Of a stretch of DNA of 19,841 nucleotides, positions 8,698 through 10,068 are shown one piece after another. The notes under the pieces were generated by a model. That model did not search any database, was not told where the DNA came from, and saw only the letters and a list, made by a program, of their open reading frames with translations. The stretch lies in IMG/VR virus record IMGVR_UViG_2541047915_000006; one strand, given 5' to 3'. The stretch comes from a virus (lineage: Duplodnaviria; Heunggongvirae; Uroviricota; Caudoviricetes). The position numbers and the translations under genes were made by a program. Position 1 is the stretch's first letter. The number at the start of each line of letters is the position of its first letter.

Positions 8698-8722
8698 AAC
8701 CCGGCGCTGAGGCCGGGTTGTA
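8698..8722 (-). terminator. Intrinsic terminator ending the cI operon (tImm-like)
   Basis: Minus strand CCCGGCCTCAGCGCCGGG hairpin followed by TTTTCTTTG, starting 1 nt after the stop of the 250-aa cassette gene. Confidence 0.5.
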
Positions 8723-9475
8723 TTATGCTGCAAGTCTCTTAACCCAAGTCTCTCTTTTGGAGAATGGTAGAACTTGGCTTGATTCATGGAAGAGTAAGGA
8801 GAGTTGTTGCATTTGATCACCAATTGCTTCGCTGTCTATAACAACAAATCTGTTGTTATACTCCTCACTTGAAGCTTTAAGATCAATTAGTTTCCCAAGC
8901 AATGAGTAAGCACTATTCCAGCTTCCTCCGTGTTTCACGCTTGATGTAAAAACGTATTTAGGTATGTCGGTTTTTATTGTTACAGGGACGGTAATTTGAT
9001 GTCCACTCAAGCCATATACGTTTTCACGAAGAGAAAGTGCGTCTCTAAGCTCTGTGTGATATAGATAATCAATAACCATACTTTCAAACTTTTCAGCTTG
9101 AACTGGCTGATACCAGTCTAACGACAAAGTTGATGCGAGTATACCAGCTCTAATTATGTTCGATGTAATCGCACCGACATCCTTTTCTGTTGCCCAAGCA
9201 ATGATTTCTCCTCGAGCATTGAGTTCTGCGCCTTCTTTAAGCAGTAATTGTCGTATCTCATCAAGTCGTTTTTTGGTAAGCGAGATCCCTCTTGCCTCCA
9301 TATTCATTAAGGCATCGCATCTGTCACTAACTAAATACCTACCATTGACTTCACGGATAAAGGCACCGACATGCTCTCCATCATCACAGTAAGTGAATGG
9401 ACTGATAATTCTCAAGGTCTTGCCTATTGGATGGCATTCGAAACCTAGTTGTGAGATCACTGTTGAGCACATCAT
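8723..9475 (-). CDS. Uncharacterised protein B of the cI-distal two-gene cassette (250 aa), in the rexAB position
   Basis: Long ORF with the only stop-free frame. ATG at 9475 overlaps the stop of the upstream gene (ATGA). About 40% GC by spot counts. No similarity to RexA/RexB or any family I can name. Confidence 0.7.
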   Translation of the reverse strand: MMCSTVISQLGFECHPIGKTLRIISPFTYCDDGEHVGAFIREVNGRYLVSDRCDALMNMEARGISLTKKRLDEIRQLLLKEGAELNARGEIIAWATEKDVGAITSNIIRAGILASTLSLDWYQPVQAEKFESMVIDYLYHTELRDALSLRENVYGLSGHQITVPVTIKTDIPKYVFTSSVKHGGSWNSAYSLLGKLIDLKASSEEYNNRFVVIDSEAIGDQMQQLSLLFHESSQVLPFSKRETWVKRLAA

Positions 9476-10029
9476 ATTCCAAACCCCATTTGCCCCGACT
9501 CATCTTCAAGCGGTAAAGGTATTCTCCCAGAGTAAGTTATGTTCAGATGTTTACAGAAGTAATTCCAATACCCTACCAGGTCATCTGGGTTTATGTCATC
9601 TTCGATTGGAAACGCTATTCTATCACTATAGTATCCAGCTTCTTCATAGTATACATGGTAGTGAGCACCGTAAATGATATCTTGGTACTTCGGATGATCG
9701 ACCTTGTAACTATTCGTGTGTTTGTCAAAGTGATAGGTATCTACCGCGAAAACCCTCTTGTTATGATAGAAAGCAATAATATTTATTTTAGGGTAAGAAA
9801 TCGGGTCATCAGGTTCTGAATCCTGATCTGGTTTCCATTTCAGTTCAAACTTTAGCCCTTGTATAGGTATACAATCCTCATCCAAGGGGATGATATGGGC
9901 TTGTAGCCACATATCAGAGCGACTTGGTTTCTGTTTCCATTTAACGCCAGAAAAGTTAACTATTTTTTTACAATAAAGTACTTTATCAACTTCTACTTGG
10001 CTTGGCTGATAATCATCTATTTTTGCCAA
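9472..10029 (-). CDS. Uncharacterised protein A of the cI-distal two-gene cassette (185 aa if started at TTG 10029), in the rexAB position
   Basis: ORF starts 39 nt downstream of the cI stop on the same strand. The ORF-track start is a TTG preceded by AGGGCGG; the first in-frame ATG is codon 40. Rich in Asp/Glu/Tyr/His (e.g. HPKYQDIIYGAHYHVYYEEAGYY). No recognised family. Confidence 0.6.
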   Translation of the reverse strand: MAKIDDYQPSQVEVDKVLYCKKIVNFSGVKWKQKPSRSDMWLQAHIIPLDEDCIPIQGLKFELKWKPDQDSEPDDPISYPKINIIAFYHNKRVFAVDTYHFDKHTNSYKVDHPKYQDIIYGAHYHVYYEEAGYYSDRIAFPIEDDINPDDLVGYWNYFCKHLNITYSGRIPLPLEDESGQMGFGI

Positions 10030-10068
10030 TGTTTACCGCCCTGTAAATTGTAGATAAAAGTGGTTTCA

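Follow-up and report, generated by a model that had tools for sequence, protein, structure and literature searches.

A conserved, tightly coupled pair of genes (A and B) occupies the slot of an E. coli prophage in which phage lambda keeps rexAB, and its layout, repressor linkage, base composition and computational predictions probably make it an anti-phage module. The original prediction had read the pair as a candidate lysogen-expressed phage-exclusion cassette, an interpretation that is partly supported as a whole. The window (the whole stretch of 19,841 nt analyzed, from the Caudoviricetes record IMGVR_UViG_2541047915_000006) includes the following features of the repressor operon:

10069..10770, minus strand, cI-type repressor (HTH and S24 peptidase), an ORF with a lambda-cI-like C-terminal half
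10030..10068, minus strand, cI-A intergenic gap of 39 nt, which ends in cagggcggtaaacaTTG; the cI stop is at 10069
9472-10029, minus strand, gene A (WP_001062368.1), 185 aa, TTG start; phrog_2017
9643..9756, minus strand, conserved core of A, residues 92-129 (R92, D97, H104-x-N106, G121, H123-x-H125)
9472-9475, minus strand, A/B stop-start overlap, ATGA as minus-strand sequence
8723-9475, minus strand, gene B (WP_000968518.1), 250 aa, ATG start, TAA stop at 8723; phrog_1960
9134..9403, minus strand, N-terminal DUF1828 domain of B, residues 25-114, with conserved GFEC and DGEH motifs
8753..9013, minus strand, C-terminal domain of B, residues 155-241, a candidate DUF1829 / PD-(D/E)XK restriction-endonuclease-like fold
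8698..8719, minus strand, intrinsic terminator (AACCCGGC-ctcagc-GCCGGGTT, then a T-run) that closes the cI-A-B unit

The anatomy of the slot is as predicted: two genes reside between cI and N on the cI strand at exactly the coordinates claimed, the 4-nt ATGA overlap is present, and a strong hairpin followed by a T-run lies right after B. The hairpin folds at -17 kcal/mol (z = -4.55), a stability that 0 of 200 shuffles attain. Identical phage and genome records label the repressor 'cI' or 'LexA family', and its true start is probably 10764, equivalent to the cI start in the PhiR57_1 record, or 10722, the start given earlier. Phages PhiR57_1 and PhiR63_2 reportedly have as their source Brenes & Laub 2025 (Cell Host Microbe 33:1004). 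Within the operon, cI is the upstream gene and the presumed source of transcription in the lysogen. A terminator scan finds zero terminator-like sites in the cI-A gap, a promoter-like 9/12 match in this gap is no better than those of shuffles, and promoter calls internal to the cassette are not above the shuffled expectation. A Shine-Dalgarno-like GG-rich stretch (cagggcgg) is positioned 6 nt 5' of the gene A TTG, and the ATGA overlap likely couples the translation of A and B.

The cassette, described earlier as about 40% GC and AT-rich, measures 39.6% GC compared to 45.9% for the window; only 1.1% of windows of this size have a GC content that low. Its GC3 is 0.34-0.36 versus 0.44-0.58 in cI, N, O and P. 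Comparison with the Salmonella copies shows purifying selection on both genes (dN/dS of ~0.03 for B; pN of 0.16 and pS of 0.87 for A). Plus-strand ORFs of 78-94 aa within the cassette are judged spurious, as conservation and selection track the minus-strand frames. The early-left operon with ral, gam and kil adjoins the cassette. The window carries an IS insertion and the CFT073 prophage has a split cI; both of these defective prophages keep the cassette.

The linkage of A, B and a repressor is strict in phages. The order repressor, A, B is found in 80/80 IMG/VR viral loci, which represent 18 B clusters and 12 repressor clusters, with one B cluster pairing with up to 4 repressor clusters. The same order is noted in eight genome lineages and in a Pseudomonas D3-like phage. 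A check of whether A and B always co-occur finds the two genes adjacent in all 80 viral loci, where they overlap by 4 nt (59 loci) or 13 nt (21 loci) and B always starts with ATG. Distant relatives of A likewise have DUF1828 proteins encoded next downstream. In Roseateles (Burkholderiales), an A-like and a B-like gene with a 4-nt overlap are located among dehydrogenase and PBP1 genes, with no phage. The expectation that the pair always sits next to a cI-like repressor is correct for phages (80/80, 12 repressor clusters) but not at the superfamily level, given Roseateles. The occurrence of the pair alone among housekeeping genes in Burkholderiales implies an autonomous module. Sister phages with cI and N flanks that are 96-98% identical carry other genes in the slot; the cI-N slot accepts exchangeable cargo. 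The cassette is present in ~4% of complete E. coli genomes, with carriers that include Nissle 1917 (an identical copy), CFT073, NU14, ATCC 25922 and the E. coli type strain. Extraintestinal B2-type strains (CFT073, NU14, Nissle 1917 and ATCC 25922) often carry it, and homologs occur in plant, insect and aquatic bacteria.

Protein A is cytoplasmic and mostly beta. Its acidic, Tyr/His/Trp-rich character (pI 5.27; Tyr 8.6%, His 4.3%, Trp 2.2%) and its His patch (HPKYQDIIYGAHYHVYYEEAGYY, residues 113-135) agree with the earlier description. TM-like segments are absent from A and B, with maximum 19-residue hydropathies of 0.45 and 1.19, respectively (TM threshold ~1.6); the claim that neither protein has multi-pass membrane segments, unlike RexB, is borne out. 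The core of A does not vary among 31 relatives, the most distant at 21% identity, or among 8 very diverse pairs. This core takes in the conserved portion of the His patch (G121-E129), of which Y127 and E129 are conserved inside the close clade. The Asp/His/Asn cluster of the core (D97, H104, N106, H123 and H125) is a candidate metal-binding or active site, and the conservation of A appears enzyme-like. Against an enzymatic A, the metal site is predicted from sequence alone and a fold relative that would support it is missing: no structural relatives of A were found, and the sequence search of solved structures was empty.

Gene A was originally proposed to start on TTG or on an ATG 39 codons in. 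The former is taken as the real start and the latter is discarded, since conservation in every homolog extends over the first 38 residues from the TTG, including Q11, D15, K22 and W31. The weak start is a general property of A: all 33 unique A sequences use a non-ATG codon (GTG in 30, TTG in 3 and ATG in 0).

Protein B is composed of two alpha/beta domains, which appear to be a sensor-like domain and a nuclease-fold domain. The N-terminal domain matches PF08861 (DUF1828) with an E of 5.3e-8 (33.5 bits versus a cutoff of 22), a match shared by 26/26 members, and its fold resembles the T3SS chaperones, YbjN and DUF2170. The C-terminal domain has the alpha-beta-beta-beta-alpha-beta core fold of PD-(D/E)XK enzymes, with G155, S157, G158 and H159 (GxSGH), P164, W186, Y190, G194 and D198 as invariant residues. 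The canonical D...(D/E)xK motif is missing: strand 2 starts without an acidic residue and strand 3 is without a conserved ExK/DxK. Identity of B to PD-(D/E)XK restriction endonucleases (Cfr10I/NgoMIV/PspGI type) and to the Can2/Card1 nuclease domains is 8-13%, and their catalytic residues are not conserved in B. The sequence search of solved structures with B returned only noise.

In family scans at E <= 1, A and B hit nothing in Pfam, PADLOC, PHROGs or NCBIfam apart from DUF6978, DUF1828, PDC-M24 and two phrogs of unknown function. The earlier statement that neither protein resembles any family is, therefore, incorrect, as B is a DUF1828 protein with a candidate DUF1829 domain (PD-(D/E)XK clan) and A is remotely similar to DUF6978 / PDC-M24A. 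The search of defense HMMs matches both proteins to the two components of PDC-M24, A marginally and partially. B aligns to PADLOC PDC-M24B with an E of 4.7e-10 (residues 2-249 versus profile positions 4-254 of 256), and 26/26 family members match. The match of A to PDC-M24A (E = 4.8e-4) is confined to residues 104-163/164 and profile positions 79-134 of 148, the remote profile match to DUF6978 begins at H104 and covers the His residues, and only 2-3 of the 31 A relatives reach PDC-M24A or DUF6978 (2/31 for each PDC-M24A model).

By these profile matches, the pair is a distant relative of PDC-M24, a two-gene PADLOC candidate with the order FAM_00129>>FAM_00065 (Payne et al., bioRxiv 10.1101/2024.01.29.577857). 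The two share gene number and order, with B matched at full length and A over the His core; they differ in that the similarity is remote (5e-10 for B and 5e-4 for A) and A is longer by an N-terminal extension. PDC candidates are defined by embedding in BREX, DISARM, Hma or type I RM loci, whereas the cassette resides in a prophage immunity region; such embedding is seen in no examined neighborhood, all of which are prophage immunity regions or the Roseateles housekeeping genes. PDC-M24 is an unvalidated candidate, a point against a defense function. A second, independent defense prediction is provided by DefensePredictor (Science 2026), which lists both exact proteins as predicted novel defense genes with log-odds of 4.90 (A) and 5.64 (B) relative to a stringent cutoff of 4. 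Of the DefensePredictor predictions that were tested, 45% were validated and 55% were without phenotype; the cassette is not among the 94 units tested. A literature search found no experiment on the cassette; PDC-M24, DUF6978 and both accessions were absent from the main texts searched, and the two papers that name DUF1828 deal with other matters. The novelty of the pair was over-rated in the original prediction, since the candidate is already in computational catalogues.

Lambda has the layout cI-rexA-rexB-terminator. The cassette is similar to RexAB in its cI-N slot, repressor strand and predicted repressor transcription unit, two genes, closure by a terminator (at the position of the lambda terminator after rexB) and AT-rich cargo, and a sensor-plus-effector logic is presumed for both. 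By contrast, the family scans above detect no sequence or family similarity to RexAB, A and B lack the multiple TM segments of RexB, and gene sizes and folds differ. Both RexAB and BstA are found in the cI-N interval, which is documented as a hotspot (PMC8585504). BstA, an abortive-infection system of Salmonella BTP1 and other prophages and a precedent at this locus, is encoded directly 3' of diverse prophage repressors with which it probably shares a promoter; like the cassette, it is carried mainly by prophages, and fewer copies stand alone (PMC8585504). Unlike the cassette, BstA is one large protein with a DNA self-immunity element, and it has no homology to A or B in the family scans; a search for a BstA-like self-immunity element revealed no notable repeats within the cassette.

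Whatever its mechanism, the pair is rather likely to be a defense system. The most complete explanation, a two-component, lysogen-expressed anti-phage cargo with A as effector and B as sensor or regulator, is tentative and falls somewhat short of an even chance. In this scheme, lambdoid prophages would carry the cassette in their cI-N slot as a superinfection-exclusion or abortive-infection cargo module, and it would be transcribed in the lysogen from the repressor promoter as the distal part of the operon (cI-A-B-terminator). A would serve as the effector, a small cytoplasmic protein with a fold of no known relative and a putative metal or active site, the synthesis of which may be kept deliberately low by the non-ATG start. 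B, ATG-started and translationally coupled to A, would act as sensor or regulator, with its chaperone-like DUF1828 domain predicted to bind A or a phage protein and its degenerate PD-(D/E)XK-fold, putative DUF1829 domain predicted to bind nucleic acid. An incoming phage would then lift the restraint on A, with a block to infection or sacrifice of the cell as the outcome.

The roles may instead be reversed, with B as the effector, a divergent PD-(D/E)XK nuclease that operates via H159, D198 and K200 instead of the canonical triad, and A as a sensor, specificity or activating subunit. This arrangement is considered unlikely: the D...(D/E)xK motif is not conserved in B, K173 is unconserved beyond the close clade, the more enzyme-like invariant cluster is that of A, and the weak start is harder to explain if A is a mere sensor. 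HipAD (DS-6 of DefensePredictor), a validated two-gene E. coli defense system, is informative here. Its second protein, DS-6B, has a DUF1829-like domain, to which the candidate DUF1829 domain of B would correspond, and a model in which it binds both DNA and its toxic partner has been put forward; this validated DUF1829 protein is read as a DNA-binding, antitoxin-like partner and not a nuclease. The HipAD partner is a HipA kinase and not A-like, and DS-6B has DUF3037 where B has DUF1828. A link of B to DS-6B via DUF1829 was examined and rejected, as direct profile comparison is negative (hhalign probability 0.1).

An accessory role in lysogeny or host physiology, in which the pair modulates prophage induction or maintenance or provides a benefit for fitness or virulence that has nothing to do with phages, is improbable. 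Putative co-transcription with the repressor means that the pair could act on the switch; however, 12 repressor clusters and several replication modules are found in combination with the cassette, which also occurs outside prophages, and this argues against a function bound to one switch. A virulence benefit would fit the abundance of the cassette in extraintestinal B2-type strains and has a precedent in bstA, initially tied to virulence phenotypes (PMC8585504), but homologs are spread over plant, insect and aquatic bacteria, which speaks against host-specific virulence.

An addiction module of the toxin-antitoxin kind, serving to stabilize the prophage or chromosomal site and not to counter other phages, is very doubtful. 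The resemblance is one of operon design. The higBA and hicAB loci are toxin-first type II toxin-antitoxin loci, and the cassette is similar to them in layout, with overlapping genes of which the first is poorly and the second well initiated; there is no homology to A or B. The isolated chromosomal pair of Roseateles and the retention of the cassette in defective prophages (the split cI of CFT073 and the IS insertion of this window) are also compatible with addiction. Yet neither protein matches a toxin-antitoxin family in Pfam, NCBIfam or PADLOC, many toxin-antitoxin systems defend anyway, and strict attachment to the repressor operon, seen in 80/80 phage loci, is characteristic of lysogen-expressed cargo (RexAB and BstA, for example). 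A counter-defense or host-takeover function in the lytic growth of the phage itself (e.g., anti-restriction) is suggested by the adjoining early-left operon but is highly improbable, as the pair is on the predicted cI transcription unit with its own terminator insulating it from pL, is also found without any phage (Roseateles) and is scored as defense by both predictors.

If the preferred reading as an anti-phage module is correct, the cassette extends prophage-encoded immunity, at the classic rexAB locus, by a new protein pair and probably by a new effector fold. If it is not defense, the pair is a useful false positive common to two computational defense predictors. The strict repressor-A-B architecture over 12 repressor clusters offers a simple rule to find lysogen-expressed cargo, and the fixed non-ATG start of A together with the ATG of B provides a testable idea on how a potentially toxic effector is restrained. 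Carriers include probiotic, uropathogenic and reference strains of phage-therapy and host-range work. An extended proposal is somewhat unlikely, namely that the cassette is the tractable founding member of a repressor-coupled immunity class not validated before, with A a metalloenzyme whose fold has no match among solved or characterized proteins and whose dose is set by the evolutionarily fixed non-ATG start and by translational coupling to B as a chaperone-like, nuclease-fold sensor; it would explain part of the so far unexplained resistance to lambdoid phages in Nissle 1917, CFT073, ATCC 25922 and the E. coli type strain. As a point against a defense function, the lambda and Stx resistance of Nissle is credited to another gene of the cassette-bearing prophage (PMC5987069). 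This Nissle 'phage repressor' gene maps to the cII/oop region and is distinct from the cassette.

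The two genes between cI and N of this lambdoid prophage, A (WP_001062368.1) and B (WP_000968518.1), occupy the slot that holds rexA-rexB in lambda and are best supported as a lysogen-expressed, two-component anti-phage module. The ORFs found match exactly the coordinates and lengths of the original prediction. The cassette (8698-10068) and its upstream boundary include:

10069 (-): cI stop, from a minus-strand sequence reading
9472-10029 (-): A, 185 aa, TTG start
8723-9475 (-): B, 250 aa, ATG start, TAA stop at 8723
8719-8698 (-): terminator hairpin AACCCGGC-ctcagc-GCCGGGTT plus T-run, directly after B

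On the minus strand, the cI-A gap is 39 nt with a 3' end that reads 'cagggcggtaaacaTTG', and an ATGA is common to the A stop and the B start. The hairpin (-17 kcal/mol, z = -4.55) is the only terminator-like site detected by a terminator scan on the cassette strand between cI and N. The cassette has a GC content of 39.6% vs 45.9% for the window, a value equally low in only 1.1% of same-size windows, and the GC3 of A and B is 0.34-0.36 vs 0.44-0.58 in neighbouring phage genes. The A protein has an acidic pI of 5.27 and a high content of Tyr, His and Trp, and neither A nor B has TM-like segments. Comparison with the Salmonella counterparts shows strong purifying selection on both genes (B, dN/dS ~0.03; A, pN 0.16 and pS 0.87).

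The association of A, B and a repressor, which the original prediction had singled out as a check, holds throughout the phage and prophage loci sampled. Full-length B homologues of 47-84% identity are distributed across Enterobacterales and Aeromonas, and the A homologue set parallels that of B. The order repressor, A-like gene and B, divergent from a cro-like gene, is constant in eight genome lineages (Aeromonas, Klebsiella, Thorsellia, Photorhabdus, Salmonella with three replication modules, Pectobacterium and Serratia). In a systematic sample of 80 IMG/VR loci (B identity 49-100%), every locus has an A-like ORF directly upstream of B and, no more than 1.5 kb upstream on the B strand, a repressor-like ORF (80/80 for each). 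De-replication of these loci yields 18 B, 21 A and 12 repressor clusters, with up to four repressor clusters per single B cluster. A Pseudomonas D3-like phage likewise has the repressor-A-B layout. In this phage, vB_PaD_phPA-G (locus L025, 3680-5004), the GenBank entry lacks an annotation for the A-like ORF (~4486-5004), a gene for a 216-aa protein separates the CI-like repressor from A, and a diversity-generating retroelement (Avd and reverse transcriptase) is found further downstream. In prophages of Thorsellia (L009, 5010-5354) and Serratia symbiotica (L017, 3850-4173), an additional ORF (~107-114 aa) that matches no Pfam family separates the repressor from the A-like gene.

DUF1828 proteins still follow A relatives of 25-32% identity, and Roseateles toxinivorans and one Burkholderiales MAG encode an A-like/B-like pair with a 4-nt overlap, the B-like protein of which aligns over its full length (hhalign E = 3e-34, 33% identity). 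The Roseateles pair is neighboured by 2-hydroxyacid dehydrogenase, aldehyde dehydrogenase and PBP1 genes. Thus, A and B form an autonomous module of two genes with no intrinsic tie to phages, and lambdoid and D3-like phages have on repeated occasions joined it to the 3' end of the repressor gene.

The TTG-initiated long form of A is real, since the N-terminal 38 residues are conserved from the TTG in every homologue. At this conserved N-terminus, the start codon is GTG in 30, TTG in three and ATG in none of 33 unique viral sequences; the only ATG-initiated A seen is that of Thorsellia. By contrast, B starts with ATG in all viral loci sampled, and the two genes overlap in every viral locus (4 nt in 59, 13 nt in 21). 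This arrangement supports the proposal of low-level A expression and suggests a role for the A:B ratio.

The B protein has three profile matches, shared by 26/26 members of its family: Pfam DUF1828 (score exceeding the gathering cutoff), PADLOC PDC-M24B (along the whole length of B) and phrog_1960. Based on secondary-structure order, the chaperone-type fold matches (T3SS chaperone/YbjN/DUF2170) probably correspond to residues 1-120 and the PD-(D/E)XK-type matches to residues 129-249. The HHpred table that accompanies DefensePredictor, a machine-learning defence-gene study, is consistent with this split: DUF1828 spans 25-114 (99.5%) and DUF1829 of clan PDDEXK spans 155-241 (98.8%) (PMC13092281). 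The A protein matches phrog_2017 and, just marginally and via residues 104-164, DUF6978 and PDC-M24A. Only 46 A relatives emerge from an exhaustive HMMER search covering 1.84 billion representatives, and few of these relatives bridge to DUF6978 or PDC-M24A. Residues W31, R92, D97, H104, N106, H123, H125, F158, P173 and Q180 are kept in relatives down to 21% identity, with H104/N106 and H123/H125 forming i, i+2 pairs on predicted strands; this pattern may represent a metal or active site.

A defence function of the pair, whatever its mechanism, is probable. The fuller statement, in which A would be the effector, limited in dose, and B would sense for or regulate A, is tentative and falls somewhat short of an even chance. 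Ranked next, and unlikely, is a swap of roles in which B is a divergent nuclease. The invariants of the B C-domain among eight very diverse B proteins (GxSGH159, P164, W186, Y190, G194 and D198) do not include a D...(D/E)xK motif; thus, nuclease activity of B is uncertain. The one validated DUF1829-bearing protein, DS-6B of HipAD, is read as a DNA-binding, antitoxin-like partner of a HipA kinase (PMC13092281); no direct similarity between B and DS-6B was found. Non-defence roles (addiction module, lysogeny or host-fitness accessory, or counter-defence) are weakened, as the cassette is not bound to a particular repressor or replication module and is also found outside phages. The anti-phage module remains the preferred reading, and its kind is already known: swappable defence cargo co-transcribed with the prophage repressor.

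The pair is already a candidate in two computational resources. A and B match both components of a single PADLOC candidate, PDC-M24 (FAM_00129>>FAM_00065, 153 instances), which is only 'assigned as candidate'; such systems are nominated from copies embedded in BREX, DISARM, Hma or type I RM loci (bioRxiv 10.1101/2024.01.29.577857). The identical A and B proteins are entered as 'Predicted novel defense gene' in DefensePredictor (DeWeirdt, Mahoney & Laub, Science 2026, PMC13092281), with log-odds of 4.90 and 5.42 for A, 5.64 for B and 6.26 for the B variant WP_000968517.1, all above the stringent cutoff of 4. The tables of 94 tested units, of which 42 (45%) had a phenotype, include neither the A/B accessions nor any DUF1828 protein (PMC13092281); thus, the pair is predicted, not validated. 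New here are the strict repressor-A-B linkage over many immunity types, the existence of non-phage copies that stand alone, the fixed combination of a non-ATG A start with an ATG B start and an overlap, and the domain/fold assignments with invariant residue sets. The pair is a good experimental target, though a specialist is unlikely to be surprised.

Phages with cI and N flanks 96-98% identical to the window carry different genes in the slot: 283-aa plus 163-aa proteins in PhiR11_1 and 2G7b, and a 173-aa protein in Stx2a_WGPS8, 1717, 2851 and PA phages (cargo at 620-2000 and 916-1437 in sister-phage loci L019 and L020, respectively). These alternative proteins, without Pfam or PADLOC matches, are further uncharacterised candidates. 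The cI-N interval was previously described as a hotspot of mosaic diversity (PMC8585504).

A human E. coli chromosome (NZ_OZ547099.1) matches the window at 100% identity, and the prophage of ATCC 25922 matches it at 99.4%. Among 5,426 complete E. coli genomes, 241 have a chromosomal, single-copy cassette of at least 99% identity, including Nissle 1917, CFT073, NU14 and the type strain ATCC 11775. Phages ev207, ev017, PhiR57_1, PhiR63_2 and Stx1_121427 carry the cassette as well. PhiR57_1 and PhiR63_2 reportedly originate from Brenes & Laub 2025. Existing annotation labels the genes 'DUF1828 domain-containing protein' and 'hypothetical protein', nothing more. In CFT073 (L011, 10372-11073), the cI annotation consists of a split pseudogene and an HTH fragment, and A and B are intact; thus, the cassette persists in a prophage whose repressor is damaged. 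In Nissle 1917, resistance to lambda and Stx phages is credited to a 'phage repressor' (pr, EcN_1294; ~200-fold protection), and the remaining prophage genes are stated to be still untested (PMC5987069). EcN_1294 is not cI; it is the cII/oop region of this prophage (window 11197-11493), where one EcN_1294 qPCR primer matches exactly (11434-11452).

The annotated gene order is textbook lambdoid (...ral, sieB, N, [B, A], cI, cro, cII, O, P...). The sieB gene (superinfection exclusion B; 7416-7997, +) is located two genes away from the cassette; thus, the region holds a known exclusion gene beside the candidate. The early-left operon is interrupted by:

5340-6600 (-): IS3-family element (ISEc52 in matching genomes)
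6253-6591 (-): IS orfA
5408-6226 (-): IS orfB

This insertion, which left a truncated ea10 remnant (6625-6819) and is not present in PhiR57_1, indicates that the prophage copy is probably defective. Downstream of Q is a porin gene (annotated ompC/OmpD-like; 16329-17471, -) adjoined by a very AT-rich stretch (17400-17800, GC 0.27). The sole Rfam match in the window is the lambda cIII thermoregulator RNA element (RF01804, 88.5 bits; 5080-5138, -).
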